Under the pieces are notes generated by a model. That model made no database searches, was not told where the DNA came from, and was given only the letters and a program-made list of their open reading frames with translations. Positions 5,039 through 25,102 of a stretch of 64,000 nucleotides of DNA are shown here, piece by piece. A program made the translations under genes and the position numbers. The stretch comes from Patescibacteria group bacterium (GTDB lineage Bacteria; Patescibacteriota; Patescibacteriia; UBA10025; JAHIVO01), in the NCBI GenBank assembly GCA_043808365.1, contig JAZDEZ010000007.1, positions 73,637 to 137,636 of the forward strand, given 5' to 3'. How positions within the stretch are numbered: the stretch's first letter is position 1; the number at the start of each line of letters is the position of its first letter.

Positions 5039-5290
5039 AAAAATATTGTTATTAATAATCAATGCATTAACATTGTAAATGTTTATTACCAATTTGTCCA
5101 AACACGACTCGCTACTTGTTTTGATGGTGTGATTGACGTTGACTTTGGCCGTTTCGGAATAGACCCTAATCTCTAAACCCTTAATTTTGGACAGATTTAA
5201 AATCCCAATAATCGAAATTTAAAAACAGATAATATTTAAACCAGCTTGGAACACTATATTTTTGAACAAATGTCGTAAAACTGTCCAGCC

Positions 5291-5605
5291 TTAAGTTGCC
5301 TTGAAGAGCGCCTCCACGATTTTTTCTAAATCCCCGATTGACTTCCGGCCGGAAGCGTCCTTAAAACAACCCTGCGCCTCCTGCTGCAGAACAGCTATGG
5401 CGACCTTGCGCAAAGCTTCCCGGCAAGCCACCACCTGCTGCAGTACGGACAAACAGTCTTTTTTATTGGCGATCATCTTTTCAATGCCGCCGATCTGCCC
5501 CCGGACGCGATGCAAACGGGCTTGAATATTGGTAAAGTTGCACCCCTCTATACCCCCCTTCCTCGATACCCCGGAGTTACTACTTTTTGTTTTGCCTTTT
5601 GGCAT
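5291..5605 (-). CDS. CsoR/RcnR/CstR-family (DUF156) metal- or thiol-sensing transcriptional repressor
   Basis: 104 aa. The core ARLHRVRGQIGGIEKMI..DCLSVLQQVVACREALRKV..LQQEAQGC matches the family helix bundle. Cys is present at the X and Z ligand positions, but the usual His four residues before the last Cys is Glu. Confidence 0.8.
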   Translation of the reverse strand: MPKGKTKSSNSGVSRKGGIEGCNFTNIQARLHRVRGQIGGIEKMIANKKDCLSVLQQVVACREALRKVAIAVLQQEAQGCFKDASGRKSIGDLEKIVEALFKAT

Positions 5606-5634
5606 TAGAAATTAGTAATTAGTCATTTACCAGC

Positions 5635-5651
5635 ATACTCCCCCCCAGTAT
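5635..5651. promoter_or_regulatory. Candidate CsoR/RcnR-type operator (ATACT-C7-AGTAT)
   Basis: A perfect 5-bp inverted repeat flanks a C7 tract 30 nt upstream of the repressor start codon. Its form is the same as the TACT-G6-N-AGTA type-1 operators known for this family. Confidence 0.6.
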
Positions 5652-5926
5652 ACCCACCTGCCGATAAACTGTCAAGCAAACAAAAAAACCCGCCTCAGTA
5701 TATACAACTAAAACGGGCTTATCAACGACTTTTTATTATTGTCTGGAATTGAGAAAAGGAAGCTAGAATCATATCCAACTTCCTTTAATAATAGCGGACA
5801 CCGTTATTCCCCGCCGAGAATTGCTAACAGGAAACCCAAGACTGGAGAAAAGTAGACTACTAAACTGGTCAGTAAATCTATGACGAGAAACGGGGACATG
5901 ATGAGAAGCAAGCGCCTATAATCCTT

Positions 5927-8580: not shown

Positions 8581-8612
8581 AACAGCTCGTTTATCCAACT
8601 GCTGTTTTTTTT
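8581..8612 (+). terminator. Intrinsic terminator after the TrmB-family gene
   Basis: AACAGC-N14-GCTGTT followed by T8. Confidence 0.75.
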
Positions 8613-8661
8613 AGTGGACTCCAAGGGAGTCGTTATTCAACTACTTACCGCCTCATTCTTA

Positions 8662-8695
8662 TGGACCAAAGTGGACTTGAACCCCTGACCTCCTC
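8662..8695 (-). pseudogene. tRNA-Ala-like 3' fragment (variable loop, T arm and acceptor strand) abutting a GC-clamp cassette
   Basis: The minus strand reads GAGGAGGTC AGGGG TTCAAGT CCACT TTGGTCC A. It is nearly identical to the 3' end of the interrupted tRNA-Ala at 9149-9198. Confidence 0.6.
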
Positions 8696-8805
8696 CCCGC
8701 CTGCCGAAGCCATTGGACCGTACCGGAATCGAACCGGTAACCTCTTCCATGCCATGGAAGCGCGCTACCAATTGCGCCAACGGCCCACTGGTTTCAGCAG
8801 GCGGG
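8696..8805 (-). mobile_element. GC-clamp cassette carrying tRNA-Ala(GGC)
   Basis: CCCGCCTGCC (8696-8705) and GCAGGCGGG (8797-8805) are complementary. The inner 7-mers GAAACCA/TGGCTTC pair 6/7 and flank the tRNA. Confidence 0.5.
8714..8786 (-). tRNA. tRNA-Ala (anticodon GGC), no encoded CCA
   Basis: Manual cloverleaf: GGGCCGT TG GCGC AATTGGTA GCGC G CTTCC ATGGCAT GGAAG AGGTT ACCGG TTCGATT CCGGT ACGGTCC A. The G3:U70 Ala identity pair is present. Confidence 0.85.
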
Positions 8806-8869
8806 AATCAGCCTTTTGAGCCTGAGGCTCATAATTAACCTTATTTTATAACATTTTTCAAAATTGTTC

Positions 8870-8969
8870 CCCGCCTGCCATGCCTATTAGTAAATTTTCA
8901 TGATGTTCCACGTGGAACAGTTAGATTATATTATTGCCAATATTGATCAACTTAGCAATGGCGGGCAGG
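8870..8969. mobile_element. GC-clamp cassette with non-tRNA cargo, inserted precisely into a GTTCCACGTGGAAC palindrome
   Basis: It is bounded by CCCGCCTGCC (8870-8879) and GGCGGGCAGG (8960-8969). The flanks GTTC (8866-8869) and CACGTGGAAC (8970-8979) rejoin into the perfect 14-bp palindrome. The cargo itself holds an intact copy at 8905-8918 and TTGATCAA at 8943-8950. Confidence 0.6.
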
Positions 8970-9101
8970 CACGTGGAACATCCATTTCCTTTCTGGTCTG
9001 GTCTGGTGGACCTGGGGAGAATCTCTGCCAGAGGCAGACCTCGCCCTACCTTGATTAATTTTATTTATTGTGGCGGGGGAACTCCGATATATAGGTCACT
9101 T

Positions 9102-9138
9102 TGCATCGTGCCGGAATTGAACCGGCGATCTCTGTCGC
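9102..9138 (-). pseudogene. Orphan tRNA 3' fragment (T arm plus acceptor strand)
   Basis: The minus strand reads GCGACAGAGATC GCCGG TTCAATT CCGGC ACGATGC A. No matching 5' half was found. A further 20-nt tRNA 3'-end fragment with CCA lies at 9004-9023. Confidence 0.5.
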
Positions 9139-9148
9139 GTAATTTTTT

Positions 9149-9370
9149 TGGACCAAAGGGGAGTCGAACCCCTGACCTCTGCAATGCGAATGCAGCGCCC
9201 CGCCTGCCATCGCCAATGGACCTAGGGAGAATCGAACTCCCGTCTGAGCAATGCGAATGCCCTGTACTACCACTGTACGATAGGCCCAATGGCCATGGCG
9301 GGCAGGTAACCAATTCCGACGTTTCAGTCGGAATCCCGACCGCTTCGCGTCGGGACTGAGCTATTGGCCC
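9149..9370 (-). other. Interrupted tRNA-Ala(CGC) gene: 5' piece 9355-9370 (plus TGGTTA at 9307-9312) and 3' piece 9149-9198, split in the D-loop
   Basis: The outer pieces GGGCCAA TA GCTC AGT..TGGTTA and (GG)GC G CTGCA TTCGCAT TGCAG AGGTC AGGGG TTCGACT CCCCT TTGGTCC A give 7/7 acceptor pairs including G3:U70. The interruption consists of two small hairpins (9313-9354) plus cassette 9199-9306. Confidence 0.6.
9217..9287 (-). tRNA. tRNA-Ala (anticodon CGC), no encoded CCA, nested inside the interrupted tRNA-Ala
   Basis: GGGCCTA TC GTAC AGTGGTA GTAC A GGGCA TTCGCAT TGCTC AGAC GGGAG TTCGATT CTCCC TAGGTCC A. G3:U70 is present. It is flanked by ATGGCCA/TGGCGAT adaptors and the 10-mers at 9199-9208 and 9297-9306. 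Confidence 0.8.
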
Positions 9371-9448
9371 TTATGGAAAGGTGCGGGACGAATGCTCTAT
9401 AGCTTACTGTACTATAGGCTCGGATATTATGATATTTATACTAGGCTT

Positions 9449-9629
9449 TGCCCTCGAGAGGAATCGAACCTCTATCTATCCCTTAGGACGGGATTGTTCT
9501 ACCCGCCTGCCATTACCATTGCCCCCACCAGGAATTGAACCTGGATCTAAGGCTTAGGAGTCCTTTGTTCTATCCGTTGAACTATAGGGGCATGGGCAAC
9601 GGCGGGCAGGTCCATTGAACTATGAGGGC
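9449..9629 (-). other. Interrupted tRNA-Arg(CCU) gene: 5' piece 9611-9629 and 3' piece 9449-9501, split in the D-loop by a 109-bp cassette
   Basis: The joined pieces give GCCCTCA TA GTTC AATGGA|TA GAAC A ATCCC GTCCTAA GGGAT AGAT AGAGG TTCGATT CCTCT CGAGGGC A (72 nt, 6/7 acceptor pairs). The unusual G32 could indicate decay. Confidence 0.6.
9520..9591 (-). tRNA. tRNA-Arg (anticodon CCU), no encoded CCA, nested inside the interrupted tRNA-Arg
   Basis: GCCCCTA TA GTTC AACGGATA GAAC A AAGGA CTCCTAA GCCTT AGAT CCAGG TTCAATT CCTGG TGGGGGC A. There is one A31-G39 mismatch. It is flanked by the 10-mers at 9502-9511 and 9601-9610. Confidence 0.75.
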
Positions 9630-9895
9630 ATAATATCCATTGCCCGCCAGAGGCGGGTCCGCCTTGGGCAGAAACTATAGAGGCATCGACAAGGGCGGAT
9701 TAGTCCATTATCAGCCAAAGGCATGTCCCCGCCCACCTGCTATCCTGCCCGACATGCCGTCATGGCAGGCGGGCGCAGGCTACAGGCGCGGCGCCTTCGG
9801 CGAAAAGTATAAGGGATTGTAATATCCACAACAGCGTAGAGTTGGGGCTCCGACTAAAGCGTCGGGATTGCCATGCCCATATCCACGTGTATTTA

Positions 9896-21877: not shown

Positions 21878-22008
21878 CTTCCGTATTGTACGGATAAAAA
21901 AACTCCCTGGTTGTCTCAGGGGGTTTTTGTTTTGGGATTGACAAGCACCCCAGCATGAACTAAGCTTCACTAATACAAAAATCGTAAACCGTTCACGTGG
22001 AGGTAAGT

Positions 22009-22365
22009 ATGTATATAAAAAACGTAGAGCTCAGGTGTCTGGTACTGGAATTTAACAAAGCGCGCGGCGGTTTGATTCTAACAGTGTTATCTAACACGCT
22101 TCTTCCATACCCATCCGGGTATCCCGTGCTCATTGTTGTTCCCTGTGAACAGAGAGTTGGACATACCTATCACGGCCAGGGACTGCTCTGGATCCCCTTC
22201 GCACAAGCGCTGGCAGAAAGTGGCGTAAACCAACCATTTGTAGTGCACGTCACCGGTGAAATCGAACTGGTCAAATCACTGGCTCTCTATCCGCAACAGC
22301 CGAAAGAACAGTGGCCGACCAAGCCGACGCTAATAATTAAAGCCAGCTACCTGAACATCGAGTAA
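22009..22365 (+). CDS. Hypothetical protein
   Basis: TGGAGGT RBS before the ATG at 22009. Its last 10 codons plus the terminator are duplicated at 23461-23556. Confidence 0.55.
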   Translation: MYIKNVELRCLVLEFNKARGGLILTVLSNTLLPYPSGYPVLIVVPCEQRVGHTYHGQGLLWIPFAQALAESGVNQPFVVHVTGEIELVKSLALYPQQPKEQWPTKPTLIIKASYLNIE

Positions 22366-22714
22366 TCCAGGCAGCAACCGTAACGAAAATACCACACAAA
22401 AACCCGACGTCACCAGGCGCCGGGTTCTTTTATTACCAGAAAAACTCCCTGGTTGTCTCGGGGGTTTTTGTTTAGTAAAAACAATATTTCGCCCAATGAC
22501 CAAAACCCGGCGCGATGATCGGACATGCAAAACTTAGTAGTAAGACATTTTAACTTCCCGTTGGCAATCTCCAAATTTTTGTTGACAACCTATTGTGCTC
22601 AATGCGATAATAAATCAAAGAAAAATGGTTTTTTGTAAGTCACGACAGAACAGAACCTTAGGAAACCTATGTCCATTGGAGAGTCTGTATTGTTTGGGTC
22701 ATAATGGAGGATTG

Positions 22715-22927
22715 ATGAATATGTACACGTTATCAGAACAAGAAAGTAAAGAGTTGTGGAGCGTTATAGACAACACGTTCCCAGTTGAGATGAGTCCCAT
22801 TACACCTCAGGGAGCTCTAAGAGAATGGTGGAGTATGGTACAGGGGCCATTGTGGGATGCATTGACTGAAATTGACCGAGATCAAATGCGGTCAGCTTCA
22901 GAAGCGCACGAAATCTGGATCCGGTAA
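22715..22927 (+). CDS. Small hypothetical protein
   Basis: GGAGG RBS before MNMYTLSEQESKELW. A TTGACA-N17-GATAAT promoter lies at about 22584. The terminator is at 22964-22989. Confidence 0.5.
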   Translation: MNMYTLSEQESKELWSVIDNTFPVEMSPITPQGALREWWSMVQGPLWDALTEIDRDQMRSASEAHEIWIR

Positions 22928-22963
22928 TGGCTTCGTTTTGGACTTCAATTTAAAACGTAAAAA

Positions 22964-22989
22964 GTGGCGATAGGTCCGCCACTTTTTTT
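22964..22989 (+). terminator. Intrinsic terminator
   Basis: GTGGCG-N7-CGCCAC followed by T7. It overlaps the ORF-track start of the next ORF, which argues for a later start. Confidence 0.75.
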
Positions 22990-22996
22990 GTGCATC

Positions 22997-23380
22997 ATGA
23001 CAGTGATCCAATATACAGTCTTTGATCCTCAATCCCAGGAGTTTGGCAAGCATATAGAAGAATTGCTTACTCCGTCTACGTTGACTGACCGCCACAACTA
23101 CTCTCTCGCCAGCATTCTCAACATCTTGATTGATCGCTTAGGGGCAAAAGCCGTGGTGAACGAGCCGAGATATATCGATGCTGACTACGCCAATATGTAT
23201 GCCCATTGGTATGCTACCGCGTTGCATAAGCACGACAATCTCTGTACTCGACTACACTTCTTCAAGACTAAGGTGTCACTTGAAGACTTACGGTCGTTCG
23301 ACGTAAACTCGATAGACTACCTCGGCGATATGATTTTTAACTTCTATGATACGTGGACGAGTTGGAAAAACGGCGGTTGA
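22997..23380 (+). CDS. Hypothetical protein
   Basis: ORF from MTVIQYTVFDPQ. No clear RBS and no recognisable domain. Confidence 0.45.
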   Translation: MTVIQYTVFDPQSQEFGKHIEELLTPSTLTDRHNYSLASILNILIDRLGAKAVVNEPRYIDADYANMYAHWYATALHKHDNLCTRLHFFKTKVSLEDLRSFDVNSIDYLGDMIFNFYDTWTSWKNGG

Positions 23381-23578
23381 GGTGTTTTATTTGAGCGAAG
23401 AATTACTTCTAGGGGCTTCCAACAACTTTCTTCCGAATAGACTATGACGCCAGAGCTGGTAATTAAAGCCAGCTACCTGAACATCGAGTAATCCAAGCGG
23501 TTGCCATACTGAAAATACCACATAAAAACCCGATGCTATCACACGCCGGGTTTTTAATTTCGGGAAGATATCAACCGC

Positions 23579-23653
23579 TGGTGGGTGCACCAGGATTCGA
23601 ACCTGGAACCACCACTTTATAAGAGTGGCGCTCTACCATTGAGCTATGCACCC
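23579..23653 (-). tRNA. tRNA-Ile (anticodon UAU) with encoded CCA
   Basis: GGGTGCA TA GCTC AATGGTA GAGC G CCACT CTTATAA AGTGG TGGTT CCAGG TTCGAAT CCTGG TGCACCC A CCA. All stems are perfect. Confidence 0.9.
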
Positions 23654-23739
23654 ATAATAATTTCGCAAATCTTTTTTAACATCAACCCCCACGGCACCTG
23701 TCCCCCGAAGTCCCGAACGAAGTGAGGGAACGAAGGGGG

Positions 23740-23883
23740 ATAAGAGTGGTGCTCCCTGCCCCGTAAAAACGAACGTAGTGAGTTTTGTACGGGGTAACCA
23801 ACTGCCTGCCCCGATAGAAATCGAAGATTTCGTACGGGGCCTGCCCGCCGCAGCGTACTCACGAAGGCGGGAGCTATGCACCC
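23740..23883 (-). pseudogene. Duplicated tRNA-Ile(UAU) 5' half broken into three pieces by GC-rich hairpin insertions
   Basis: The pieces GGGTGCATAGCTC (23883-23871), AGTTGGTTA (23803-23795) and GAGCACCACTCTTAT (23754-23740) concatenate to acceptor strand, D arm and anticodon stem/loop up to UAU. The gaps are CCTG-prefixed hairpins. Confidence 0.65.
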
Positions 23884-23914
23884 ACGCATTATCATCCTAA
23901 TATAAATTATAACA

Positions 23915-24022
23915 AATTACCAATATCCAATTACAAATATCCAATCAATTCTCAAAATCCCAATAAAGCAATTGAACATTGGTCATTCATTGGATATTGG
24001 CTATTATAAAATTGGATATTAG
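23915..24022. repeat. AT-rich CCAAT/ATTGG long palindromic element
   Basis: Arms CCAATATCCAAT (23920-23931) and ATTGGATATTGG (23989-24000) are exact reverse complements. It is homologous to 32070-32188. Confidence 0.75.
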
Positions 24023-24076
24023 TCCCCGGTAACCGAAAACAAACATGAATTACCTGCATAATCATATTACCGGCGC

Positions 24077-25102
24077 TTAAAGCGGCTTCACTAGCGGCAG
24101 CTTAGAAAACCAGCGCATCAGCTTGCTTGGCGCCTTGTCTTCTACCAGTTTGAGGAACAGAAGCGTCCAGGCAGAATATTGATAGCTGACGAATATGCCT
24201 CCCAAAATTCCCACCGCCAGAAACCAGGCAATGCCGCCAAGAGTGATTGCCACAATCAGGCCGGTACCGCTGCCGAAAAACATAGCCGCAATCCCAATCA
24301 AGGCGAACGGTACGGCAATGAGGCCGAGCACGAGGATAATGGCTAATCCATATACTATGCCTAATACGAGAATTACAATCGCCATTTCAACGCTCACCAG
24401 CCAGTTTTTCTTGAATAGCGCCCAGGCCAACCGCATCGCTTCACCGGCCCGCTTTCCCTGGATGACGATATATGCGACAGCGAATTTTACGATAAAGGCC
24501 GCCATGGCAGTCAGCGGGATATAAATGAAAAACAATAAAAAGACGAATATGAAACCGCCCCACAAGTTATCACGGATAAGCAGCCAGGAGATCAATGGCA
24601 GGCCCACTACCACTAATATGCCGTAAAGTATCACTTTTACAATCACGTTCAATGCCAGGACGGGCATAAAAAAACGATTCCCGACGACAAACCCTTCTCG
24701 ATGGGACGCTGGCTGATTTTTGTTGATTTTATTTACCCCGTCAAAAAGGGCGATTTGCGCGACTATCGCCAGCCACAGCATCACTAGGCCAACCACCACA
24801 ACCATCAGGATGAAGAAAAAGGCCTGCACCGGCTGGGTGCTGAAAGCATCCCTGATATTCGCCAGGATCGTCCAGATCACGCCGCCTTCCATCAAGCTGC
24901 GCATGTCCAGGATCCGGCTCGAAGTCTGGCCGATGCTGGTATAATCCCGAGTCAATGTTTCAAACTCGCCTCCGATGCCCAAAAAAGACGCAAAAAATCC
25001 GAATATCCATAAAAATTTATTAGCTTTAATGATATTAAACGCCCGTTTCAGGACGTCGCGGAAAACACTGCCGGGCACGGTCACCACTTTTGAATTAGCC
25101 AT
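24077..25102 (-). CDS. Polytopic integral membrane hypothetical protein
   Basis: 341 aa with at least 7 hydrophobic segments. No catalytic motif was recognised. Confidence 0.65.
   Translation of the reverse strand: MANSKVVTVPGSVFRDVLKRAFNIIKANKFLWIFGFFASFLGIGGEFETLTRDYTSIGQTSSRILDMRSLMEGGVIWTILANIRDAFSTQPVQAFFFILMVVVVGLVMLWLAIVAQIALFDGVNKINKNQPASHREGFVVGNRFFMPVLALNVIVKVILYGILVVVGLPLISWLLIRDNLWGGFIFVFLLFFIYIPLTAMAAFIVKFAVAYIVIQGKRAGEAMRLAWALFKKNWLVSVEMAIVILVLGIVYGLAIILVLGLIAVPFALIGIAAMFFGSGTGLIVAITLGGIAWFLAVGILGGIFVSYQYSAWTLLFLKLVEDKAPSKLMRWFSKLPLVKPL

Follow-up and report, generated by a model that had tools for sequence, protein, structure and literature searches.

A broken tRNA-Ile relic with CCTG-tagged hairpins in a Patescibacteria genome: probable remains of a replaced gene colonised by small nonautonomous elements

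REP and BIME elements, palindromes tagged by the tetranucleotides GTAG or CGTC, are mobilised by RAYTs, HUH tyrosine transposases of the IS200/IS605 type (PMC3733652). Transfer RNA genes attract mobile DNA of other kinds: a displaced tRNA fragment beside a regenerated tRNA gene is a known hallmark of tRNA-targeting islands (Islander, PMC4383910), and group I introns interrupt tRNA genes of Patescibacteria, often in the anticodon loop (PMC13011429). The locus described here belongs to a Patescibacteria (CPR) genome and lies in a window of 64 kb, the whole stretch of DNA that was analysed. It contains an intact tRNA-Ile gene and, directly upstream, pieces of a second one separated by small hairpins.

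Both the relic and the intact gene are read on the minus strand, along which the order is piece 1, H1, H2, piece 2, H3, piece 3, H4. Piece 1, GGGTGCATAGCT (23883-23872), corresponds to tRNA positions 1-12; piece 2, CAGTTGGTTA (23804-23795), to positions 13-21, the last base of the D stem and the D loop; and piece 3, GAGCACCACTCTTAT (23754-23740), to positions 22-36, ending with the anticodon UAU. The pieces join with neither gap nor duplication into a 37-nt 5' part of tRNA-Ile(UAU). When the missing remainder is supplied from the intact gene, ARAGORN builds a perfect tRNA-Ile(tat) cloverleaf from it. A previous sequence-only reading, which had taken the three pieces for the 5' part of a tRNA-Ile, is borne out by this result.

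The four units between and after the pieces (H1-H4) are 32, 35, 40 and 43 nt long and each starts with CCTG on the plus strand. H1 (32 nt, CCTGCCCGCCGCAGCGTACTCACGAAGGCGGG, 23840-23871, plus strand) folds as a hairpin and bears the tag CCTGCCCGCC, termed clamp, which occurs seven times in the window against 0.15 expected. H2 (35 nt, CCTGCCCCGATAGAAATCGAAGATTTCGTACGGGG, 23805-23839, plus strand) is located between H1 and piece 2, and the two share one insertion point between tRNA positions 12 and 13. H3 (40 nt, 23755-23794, plus strand) occupies position 21/22 and has a loop of the TCACTWCGTTC type; H4 (43 nt, 23697-23739, plus strand) is of the same family and sits in the anticodon loop, at 35/36 or 36/37. 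The division into four CCTG-led units agrees with the sequence-only reading except for the boundary of H1, placed there at 23870; because we set it at 23871, the C at 23804 that had been left over vanishes. Folds of -13 to -17.5 kcal/mol are predicted for the four units. H2 (z-score -3.3 to -3.4) and H3 (about -3.3 to -3.5) stand out from shuffled sequence, while H1 and H4 are, by fold energy alone, indistinguishable from GC-rich shuffles. UUCG- and GNRA-like motifs abound in the loops. The sequence-only reading rightly saw the fillers as related hairpin elements that enter without target duplication. No clear target motif is common to the sequences beside the insertion sites, which counts against mobile elements.

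The relic continues past the anticodon. H4 is followed by TGCC and then by GTGGGGGTTGATGTT (23692-23678, the two together forming 23678-23696, minus strand), a decayed copy, according to spliced alignment, of positions 40-55 of the clade-typical tRNA-Ile. It covers the 3' strand of the anticodon stem, the variable loop and the start of the T stem of the old tRNA, and its junction TGCCGTGGG is kept in the related loci L062 and L254. The description of the fragment as a 5' half thus holds for the clean part up to UAU, but not for the relic as a whole, which goes on in decayed form and breaks off near position 55. Next comes an AT-rich leader of 24 nt (23654-23677, minus strand) with partial homology to the L062 leader TTAAAAAAG, and then the intact tRNA-Ile(UAU) itself (23579-23653, minus strand; 78.5 bits in Rfam, with an agreeing ARAGORN call). 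Nothing but H4, 19 nt of decayed tRNA and the leader separates the relic pieces from this gene, which we call a type 2 allele (D loop AATGGTA, T arm CCAGGTTCGAATCCTGG). Leader and gene are flanked by a direct repeat GGTTGAT (23570-23576 and 23681-23687, minus strand); it may be a target duplication or a microhomology junction, with the odds of chance roughly estimated at a few percent. A stem-loop with a T run, terminator-like by eye, follows the intact gene; a terminator scan of the locus gave no match.

Exact joining of the pieces would also suit a working tRNA that is split or carries several introns, as in archaea, with hairpins as introns and pieces as exons, and the sites used (D, anticodon, variable and T loop) resemble those of non-canonical archaeal introns (work on intron transposition in Thermoproteales, cited in PMC10714607). 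Against it, the host is a bacterium, and the locus has a bacterial-type promoter and the terminator-like hairpin, both recognised by eye. A matching 3' half is absent: searches with acceptor-strand and T-loop patterns found no old 3' half elsewhere in the window, and the 64 kb contain no second TGCACCC acceptor strand besides that of the intact gene. Relics of the related genomes, moreover, are truncated, have indels and have lost acceptor strands, and an uninterrupted gene always adjoins. We regard a working split tRNA as hardly credible.

The promoter region of the relic spans 23888-23923 (minus strand). One candidate in it, TTGGTA-18 nt-TAGGAT, ends 10 nt before G1 of the relic, and a promoter scan reports an overlapping candidate, TTGTTA-16-GATAAT; directly before the intact gene no promoter of comparable kind was found. 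Read by eye, a promoter of the same layout, TTGGCA-17-TAGGAT-11 nt-GGG, stands ahead of the intact tRNA of L001 and, in both L005 and L254, ahead of the old 5' half; MAFFT aligned the window poorly. The fragment had been considered a variant copy of the intact gene. This has to be given up, as its D arm is of type 1, the intact gene is of type 2, and the ancestral promoter lies upstream of the fragment. Judged by its sequence, the fragment is the older resident gene, with the clade-typical type 1 D arm, and not a duplicate. Most likely it serves today as the first ~230 nt of the pre-tRNA, that is, as the leader of the working tRNA: transcription would start at the old promoter and read through, and RNase P would then cut the relic leader off. 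A transcript of 305 nt is predicted to fold unusually well (z = -3.5), and the old 5' acceptor strand is able to compete for the 3' acceptor strand.

Alignment with the tRNA-Ile loci of relatives, proposed as a check by the sequence-only reading, shows that 16 of the 20 related Patescibacteria genomes have broken tRNA-Ile pieces flanking an intact tRNA-Ile. The intact gene is uninterrupted in 15 of these 16; the L255 contig ends inside the downstream gene. The relics show truncations, indels, substitutions and lost acceptor strands, and because truncations and substitutions are so many in the genomes of the clade, we consider the broken pieces pseudogenes. Hairpins recur at positions 12/13, 21/22, 35/36 and 48/49, with the 21/22 site used in seven genomes, 35/36 in six and 12/13 in five. 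The proposed preference for the D loop is upheld, the loop/stem junctions being hit again and again. The closest relatives, L001 and L003 (89% and 86% identity of the DUF7544 protein), carry a clean gene at the locus.

Relatives also record how the gene was exchanged. In L005, L043, L012, L014 and L015 a replacement gene is located in the anticodon loop, and in L005, L043 and L062 a cassette that carries a complete tRNA lies between the two old halves. A replacement event at the anticodon loop had been suggested for the window as well; replacement did occur, but the new gene sits close to position 55, in the T arm of the old one, while the anticodon loop is filled by H4. Within the clade the type 2 intact allele is present in the window and in L016 only, and both also carry H3, with the flanking protein just 49% identical. 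In other parts of the window, tRNA-Arg(CCU) and tRNA-Ala(CGC) genes that are intact and bounded by CCTGCCCGCC...GGCAGGCGGG nest in the D loops of their broken counterparts, genes for the same tRNAs. Overlapping tRNA-Ala calls at 9149-9288 of the window are an example of misled tRNA finding.

An island or phage that integrated in tRNA-Ile, regenerated the gene and was later lost could leave such a displaced fragment, the hairpins being leftover sequences of its recombination arms. Gene content downstream of tRNA-Ile is variable among relatives, and in the window the interval from tRNA-Ile to HU contains three orphan ORFs. The displaced part, however, is the 5' part with its promoter kept, the gap to the intact gene is just ~24-70 nt, and the arrangement in L005, L043 and L062 is that of a complete-tRNA cassette between two halves. 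No transposase, integrase or nuclease was recognised by Pfam and PHROG in the ORFs flanking both tRNA zones or in the three downstream orphan ORFs, and several hairpins within tRNA pieces would stay unexplained. An integrase scar is accordingly quite improbable in our estimate.

H3 and H4 form one family, with the conserved loop TCACTTCGTTC and a covarying stem. The family alignment, which comprises both of them and hairpins of L016, L062, L013, L254 and L012, has a mean column identity of 74%; two-sided changes affect three of the four inner-stem pairs, and the covariation score was reached by none of 500 shuffles. The model built on the family, R1, scores H3 with 51 and H4 with 59 bits, and its strong matches in 739 kb of related DNA (7/7) all fall within remnants of tRNA-Ile; they share one orientation and are spread over three tRNA positions. 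By BLAST against the ~739 kb of related loci, H3 is 90% identical to an L016 hairpin at the same tRNA position, and H4, including 9 flanking nt, 92% identical to L062, again at the same position. H1 and H2 have no close copies there by BLAST; by our own count H1 shares 26 of 32 nt with an L005 insert located at 48/49, in the 3' half of the old tRNA-Ile, and L062 contains a similar one. Copies of H2, H3 or H4 outside tRNA-Ile remnants were not found in the 739 kb, and a metagenome scan with CTCTTATCCCCCTT for further H4 junctions returned 120 stretches, all of them chance matches and none a tRNA-Ile. CCTGYCYSCC tags fall within 300 nt of tRNA-Ile in 13 of 38 cases, such flanks making up an estimated ~1.8% of the DNA; in tRNA sense the tag reads CAGG, CAAG or TAAG. 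As to the expectation that the hairpins have further copies in the genome, they are not multi-copy within the window, where only the CCTGCCCGCC tag repeats; related hairpins occur at matching tRNA positions of other genomes.

Transfer RNA DNA is prone to form structures, and hairpins that are low-copy and bound to one locus could be palindromes that formed in place by template switching or hairpin-primed repair, at a locus both structured and strongly transcribed, with no dedicated element involved. The arms of the hairpins, however, are not copies of the flanking sequence, and the common tag and the conserved 11-nt loop persist across genomes and insertion positions. A purely mutational origin therefore appears very improbable.

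Another explanation is that the hairpins are RNA elements of a structured leader, kept by host selection on the pre-tRNA, and not selfish DNA; they might prevent wrong pairing of the old 5' half to the new 3' half, recruit a processing factor or make the transcript more stable. The conserved loop and covarying stem, the abundance of UUCG- and GNRA-like loops, the position of the promoter, which implies that the hairpins are transcribed, and the predicted fold and acceptor-strand competition of the 305-nt transcript all speak for such a role. So does the 90-92% identity of H3 and H4 across very distant genomes, with a neighbouring protein below 50% identity, which could equally fit host-level selection. 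Two-tier GC hairpins of similar kind also abut tRNA 3' ends in distant Patescibacteria. On the other hand, the hairpins are placed inside the tRNA-derived pieces instead of adjoining them, the tRNA position taken by family members varies with the genome (12/13 in L254, 35/36 in the window), L001 and L003 have neither relic nor hairpins, and the hairpin at the anticodon-loop site of L254, a 78% relative, differs in sequence from H4. A leader function as the whole explanation is in our view unlikely.

Rfam, searched with the gathering threshold and with E<=1, revealed no ribozyme or other RNA family at the locus, a group I intron included; it returned only the tRNA itself, an antisense artefact of it and, upstream, a weak match to a miRNA family (E=0.23, 23921-23999) taken as chance. 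An ORF beside tRNA-Ile in L019 looks by eye like a LAGLIDADG homing endonuclease, but because only an HTH domain is recognised in it, the idea of a homing endonuclease is unsupported. TrmB genes were discarded as markers of a rearrangement between the two tRNA zones, with the proteins of the window and L001 only 25% identical, and so was a REPtron-like arrangement in the viral contig L230, where hairpins follow ORF ends and a flanked transposase gene is not evident.

We consider it probable that the relic is a dead ancestral tRNA-Ile, displaced by a tRNA cassette of foreign type and then colonised by nonautonomous hairpin elements. The region 23678-23883 would be the remnant of an ancestral single-copy tRNA-Ile(UAU), still behind its own promoter. 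A short cassette, leader plus complete foreign-type tRNA-Ile, would have lodged in the old T arm and taken over the function, and four small hairpins, all from one superfamily spread across the clade, would then have entered the redundant tRNA DNA. A putative element has a CCTG tag and a hairpin made up of G/C outer stem, internal loop, inner stem and loop, and would insert precisely and without duplication at the D-stem/D-loop borders, in the anticodon loop and at the border of variable loop and T stem. Because insertion into a live single-copy tRNA gene would be lethal, the elements are seen only in dead tRNA copies; versions with a complete tRNA would be viable only on landing in a gene for the same tRNA. 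The combination of tag and hairpin and the lack of duplications suggest that the inserting enzyme may be a single-strand transposase of the IS200/IS605 or RAYT type. Low copy number, and the flanking ORFs tested, in which no transposase, integrase or nuclease was found, count against mobile elements. No pair of near-identical strains with an empty and a filled state of one hairpin site was seen; mobility is therefore inferred, as are the order of events, read-through transcription and the enzyme, while the anatomy, its recurrence in other genomes, the kinship of the hairpins and their covariation are shown by the sequences.

More tentatively, and with considerable doubt, we propose that this clade of Patescibacteria may harbour an undescribed kind of mobile DNA specific for tRNA genes, consisting of CCTG-tagged hairpins and of cargo cassettes that carry a replacement tRNA. 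The hairpin form, with its conserved loop, would enter tRNA DNA at a few positions only, precisely, in fixed orientation and without duplication. The cargo form would bring a complete replacement tRNA, making a hit on the single-copy resident gene viable, and the host would then depend on the newcomer ("kill-and-replace" tRNA cassettes). Over time tRNA loci would turn into nested graveyards, also swapped between lineages.

Genomes of CPR/Patescibacteria are tiny, and their tRNA genes appear single-copy at the loci examined. That such loci seem repeatedly rebuilt, with a complete gene sitting amid the ruins of the one before it, and these ruins full of dedicated hairpins, is unexpected. If the elements are mobile, they would represent a new way of life for selfish DNA in a streamlined genome: their target would be a universally conserved class of sequence, survived by supplying a spare copy or by hiding in dead ones. 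In practice, tRNA finders give chimeric or missed calls at such loci, and trees of tRNA alleles in the clade will be distorted by horizontal replacement.

Among described systems, Islander-type islands (PMC4383910) share with our locus an intact tRNA beside a partial copy and junctions in the anticodon loop or T arm, and a regenerated tRNA with a partial direct copy of the same tRNA is indeed present here. The displaced part, however, is the promoter-proximal 5' part, further split by hairpins; no island lies between relic and gene, neighbouring ORFs have no integrase domain, and the halves in relatives flank a whole-tRNA cassette of 100-200 nt. Archaeal multi-intron and split tRNAs and the transposing introns of Thermoproteales (works cited in PMC10714607 and PMC4090602) likewise have short inserts in the D, anticodon, variable and T loops, and in Thermoproteales, as here, related inserts occur at different tRNA positions. 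In contrast to these systems, the host here is bacterial and interrupted copies are decayed, incomplete and accompanied by an uninterrupted gene. In the window the perfect 5' 37 nt are followed by a decayed stretch that stops near position 55, so no complete cloverleaf arises from the pieces, nor are they the sole source of this tRNA, an uninterrupted tRNA-Ile(UAU) standing 24 nt downstream of the relic. The group I introns in tRNA genes (PMC13011429) come from the same phylum and share the anticodon-loop preference; our inserts are simple hairpins of 32-43 nt or tRNA cassettes of ~100-200 nt, with no ribozyme match.

Yeast mitochondrial GC clusters (PMC4478555) and Rickettsia palindromic elements (RPEs, in PMC3733652) are also small GC-rich mobile hairpins in AT-richer surroundings that may lie inside genes or RNA genes; their sequences and hosts are unrelated to ours, and they are high-copy and not confined to tRNA remnants. 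Classical MITEs do not fit, since no bases are duplicated at the joins and the inverted arms exclude the CCTG tag. REP elements differ in the tag, GTAG or CGTC (PMC3733652) against CCTG, in their ordinary extragenic location against tRNA remnants, and apparently in number, the 64 kb of host genome holding very few copies (four units at the locus and seven CCTGCCCGCC tags); the 20 window ORFs scanned include no RAYT gene. Still, the likeness to REP/RAYT systems extends to several traits: imperfect palindromes of 20-40 nt (32-43 nt in H1-H4, all of which fold, with a covarying inner stem in the family), a tetranucleotide tag at one end, absence of target duplication, head-to-tail clusters and a hairpin structure kept across copies.

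The tRNA-Ile(UAU) locus lies in chromosomal DNA from a Patescibacteria (CPR) MAG. It neighbours the gene of a DUF7544 membrane protein (24077-25102, minus strand), with genes for FtsH, S1, RNase Y, YmdB, IF-2, GyrA and SMC nearby, and the order DUF7544 to tRNA-Ile(UAU) is kept in a wide set of related genomes. The intact tRNA gene (23653-23579, minus strand) is preceded by a 24-nt leader, and directly upstream lies a relic, a broken older tRNA-Ile(UAU) gene whose pieces are separated by four GC-rich hairpins (H1-H4). Read from the minus strand, piece 1 (GGGTGCATAGCT, 23883-23872) is followed by H1 (32 nt, ending at 23871) and H2 (35 nt), both between tRNA positions 12 and 13, then by piece 2 (CAGTTGGTTA), H3 (40 nt, position 21/22), piece 3 (GAGCACCACTCTTAT) and H4 (43 nt, directly behind the anticodon); TGCC and GTGGGGGTTGATGTT then lead to the leader. 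Fused, the three pieces give 37 nt, which, completed by the intact gene's 3' part, form a flawless tRNA-Ile(tat) cloverleaf in ARAGORN, so that the sequence-only reading was right to assign them to a tRNA-Ile 5' part. Its statements that all four units start with CCTG on the plus strand and entered without duplication are likewise borne out: all fold as hairpins, and no base is repeated at any junction. Its four units also stand, except for the end of H1, which absorbs a base that had been left stray. The folds of H2 and H3 clearly beat shuffled sequences, whereas those of H1 and H4 do not, since base composition alone gives stable folds. No ribozyme or other known RNA was detected by Rfam, which returned the intact tRNA and one weak match upstream, to a miRNA family (23921-23999, E=0.23). 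A further hit, "Plastid-ycf2 5'UTR RNA" (23581-23653, plus strand, 42.5 bits, below threshold), is antisense to the tRNA and was rejected as an artefact of tRNA-like sequence in the model.

The relic had been taken for a variant copy of the first 36 nt of the intact gene, a view contradicted by the D arms. That of the relic, AGTTGGTTAGAGCA, is of type 1, which is typical of the clade; the intact gene belongs to type 2 (D loop AATGGTA, variable loop TGGTT, T arm CCAGGTTCGAATCCTGG), an allele common, among the relatives sampled, to the window and genome L016 only (L-numbers are handles for compared loci, genomes or contigs). The stretch GTGGGGGTTGATGTT behind H4 is a decayed version of type-1 tRNA positions 40-55 (GTGGGGGTCGATGGTT). 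By eye, a promoter (TTGGTA-18-TAGGAT-10 nt-G1) stands directly before the relic, where a promoter scan gave an overlapping candidate (TTGTTA-16-GATAAT), and none comparable precedes the intact gene. Relatives have a promoter of the same architecture (TTGGCA-17-TAGGAT-11 nt-G1, also by eye), upstream of the intact gene in L001 and, in L005 and L254, upstream of the old 5' half; a MAFFT alignment of this region handled the window poorly. From the type-1 D arm, the decayed continuation and the promoter position it follows that the relic occupies the place of the ancestral gene. Judged from these sequence features, the gene in use today is a later arrival seated within the T arm of the former one, and its transcription probably starts at the former promoter and runs through the relic. 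The leader and the new gene are bracketed by two direct copies of the 7-mer GGTTGAT (23687-23681 and 23576-23570), which may mark the insertion junction or could be due to chance. Scars of classical integrases (PMC4383910) are a quite improbable source of this arrangement: the fragment is the promoter-proximal 5' part, the spacer is tiny, no integrase was found in the flanking ORFs scanned, and the hairpins within the pieces would be unaccounted for.

Several observations concern the surroundings of the two genes. The acceptor 5' strand and D-stem start of the relic (13 nt with pieces joined, GGGTGCATAGCTC, the last C lying at 23804, past H1 and H2) are identical to those of the type-2 gene (23872-23883 versus 23641-23653), and in L254, L062 and L016 relic and intact gene differ there, which suggests that the two copies have undergone gene conversion in the window lineage. 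An AT-rich array of direct and inverted CCAATAT / ATTGGATAT repeats (23925-24025) separates the DUF7544 stop codon from the tRNA promoter; it is missing in the closest relatives and could serve protein binding or represent a different repeat family. On the other side, between HU and tRNA-Ile, three ORFs of 122, 110 and 138 aa (21997-23380, plus strand) are without any Pfam or PHROG match. In relatives this position holds other genes (TrmB-like regulators, a 240-aa ORF, an LDcluster4 protein), and the downstream side of tRNA-Ile is thus a variable region. In the relic-free genome L019, a 219-aa ORF with an N-terminal HTH domain (5166-5825) lies directly upstream of tRNA-Ile; its LAGLFLYWGEG stretch looks LAGLIDADG-like by eye, but Pfam gave no confirmation of a homing endonuclease.

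Orthologous loci, whose alignment the sequence-only reading had proposed, were compared in 20 species-level genomes in which the DUF7544 orthologue is at least 41% identical. Broken tRNA-Ile pieces flank the intact gene in 16 of them, counting L255, whose contig end falls inside the intact gene; tRNA-Ile is clean in the other four (L001, L003, L010, L019). The 78% relative L254 has the architecture of the window with other hairpin sequences: promoter, GGGCATGTAGCT, a 43-nt hairpin, CAGCTGGCTAGAGCACCACTCTTAT, a 31-nt hairpin, TGCCGTGGGG, the leader and finally the intact gene. In L062, an unbroken 5' half is followed by an H4 counterpart, TGCCGTGGG, leader, intact gene and a 3' half with an H1-like 30-mer at position 48/49, and the acceptor strands of the outer halves match (GGGCATG / CATGCCC). 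In L016, a 5' part is interrupted by a hairpin at 13/14 and, at 21/22, by a counterpart of H3; a type-2 gene follows. An intact-gene cassette sits within the anticodon loop of an older gene in L005, L043, L012, L014 and L015, with TAT at both cassette junctions in L005 and L043 and three nested generations in L012, while in L013 and L018 a second full-length copy, heavily interrupted, comes after the intact gene. The tRNA-derived pieces of relatives show truncations, indels and missing acceptor strands (e.g. L011 CCACcacACTTAT, L017, L020, L016, L013) and are therefore pseudogenes rather than exons. That the pieces belong to a functional multi-intron or split tRNA deserves hardly any credence, given that the 3' part is missing and decayed, the relics of relatives are decayed as well and an uninterrupted gene is constantly present.

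Hairpins recur at a few tRNA positions: 12/13 (window, L005, L016, L254, L255), 21/22 (window, L016, L011, L020, L012, L014, L017), 35/36 (window, L062, L013, L254, L014, L015), 48/49 (L005, L062, L015) and the T loop (L018, L256, L013). By BLAST, H3 is 90% identical to the hairpin of L016 (flanking protein 49%), and H4 with 9 flanking nt is 92% identical to that of L062 (flanking protein 47%). H3, H4 and the hairpins of L016, L062, L013, L254 (12/13) and L012 (21/22) share 74% mean column identity, a conserved 11-nt loop TCACTTCGTTC, a G/C outer stem and a 3' tail (A)CAGG. Their inner stem shows both-sided changes in three of four pairs. Over this small sample of seven related sequences, covariation scores 0.44 versus 0.16 in shuffles; none of 500 shuffles reached 0.44, and slid controls scored lower. 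In 739 kb of related DNA, a covariance model of this family recovers its own seven members, with no other hit above 25 bits; all seven lie inside tRNA-Ile remnants, in one orientation and at three tRNA positions. The tag CCTGYCYSCC occurs 38 times in these 739 kb, 13 times within 300 nt of tRNA-Ile; some of the others are in further tRNA spacers. H1 resembles, in opposite orientation, the position-48/49 inserts of L005 (26/32 identical, manual count) and L062. A purely mutational origin of the hairpins is very improbable, leaving a tag and loop common to several genomes unaccounted for. A structured leader selected by the host would agree with the conserved loop and covariation, with how strongly the 305-nt transcript folds (z = -3.5) and with a predicted fold in which the old 5' acceptor strand, being identical to that of the intact gene, can compete for the new 3' strand; such a leader explains neither hairpins inside tRNA pieces at shifting positions nor their absence in the closest relatives, and we regard it as unlikely. 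Separately, two-tier GC hairpins with symmetric TTCG-type internal loops adjoin tRNA 3' ends or occupy tRNA spacers in distant Patescibacteria (L058 7913-7950; L030 7682-7716 and 7863-7897; L038 7602-7634); they match the hairpin model weakly and may be distant relatives or processing/terminator hairpins.

The same theme is found at other loci of the window. At 8600-9800 (minus strand), an intact tRNA-Arg(CCU) gene with exact bounds CCTGCCCGCC...GGCAGGCGGG, the clamp, interrupts a broken tRNA-Arg(CCU) in its D loop (GTTCAATGGA^TAGAAC). A broken tRNA-Ala(CGC) that retains G3:U70 likewise holds, in its D loop at 21/22, an intact tRNA-Ala(CGC) with clamp ends. The inner genes are substantially unlike the outer ones and hence not local duplicates. 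Older 5' and 3' pieces surround both genes, with up to three generations of 5' pieces and extra 3' pieces, and small hairpins are present; the outer tRNA-Ala, for instance, carries TCCCGACGCGAAGCGGTCGGGA in its D loop. A second tRNA-Ala(cgc) called by ARAGORN and Rfam at 9149-9222 (29.6 bits, at threshold), overlapping the call at 9216-9288, was rejected as a chimera that joins the right clamp to 3' sequence from the broken outer gene. A 100-nt clamp-bounded element (8870-8969, minus strand) splits the palindrome GTTCCACGTG^GAAC and carries an intact GTTCCACGTGGAAC with a promoter-like TTGATC...TATAAT; it is a tRNA-free case of an element carrying what it breaks. CCTGCCCGCC occurs seven times in the window versus 0.15 expected, and cargo-less clamps (CCTGCCCGCC-loop-GGCAGGCGGG) lie at 38361-38323 and 62324-62291 (minus strand). 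Pairing between their arms always includes a U-G wobble and a C-A mismatch. The clamp pair, with a loop of 8-38 nt, is also present in 32 IMG/VR viral contigs (L207-L238), several with multiple intergenic copies (L230, L209/L214, L215/L233); matches in contigs above 60% GC may be due to chance.

The most economical reading is a history of replacement followed by accumulation. A foreign tRNA-Ile cassette would enter the resident gene, which dies while the new gene uses its promoter, and small hairpin elements targeting tRNA DNA would then build up in the dead pieces. Such hairpins would not be sustainable in a live single-copy tRNA gene, leaving dead copies as the sole tolerated tRNA-like targets. 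Cargo-bearing versions would be viable only inside a gene for the same tRNA, which would be why inner and outer genes always match. Comparative sequence data point to mobility and horizontal exchange over quiet vertical decay, because family members occupy different tRNA positions across genomes, the window and L254 differ in hairpins at one shared site, window hairpins are near-identical to those of very distant genomes, H3 accompanies the type-2 allele in both the window and L016, and the loci of the closest relatives are clean. The latter could have been restored through recombination between repeated 5' parts.

A recent survey of Patescibacteria tRNA introns describes none but those of group I and, rarely, group II, and is silent on short hairpin inserts, remnants and nested genes (PMC13011429), and our search of full-text literature on palindromic elements in tRNA genes or replacement tRNA cassettes gave no match. 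Closest in form is the REP/IS200-type single-strand transposition (PMC3733652), which shares a tag plus hairpin, lack of duplication and one orientation. Membership is not claimed, since the tag differs, the window elements are low in copy number and no transposase was found in the readable parts of the genome and the ORFs scanned. We rate the locus as akin to two known kinds, palindromic repeats that carry a tag and tRNA-targeted insertion that restores the gene, with a fair chance that fuller data would reveal a distinct class.
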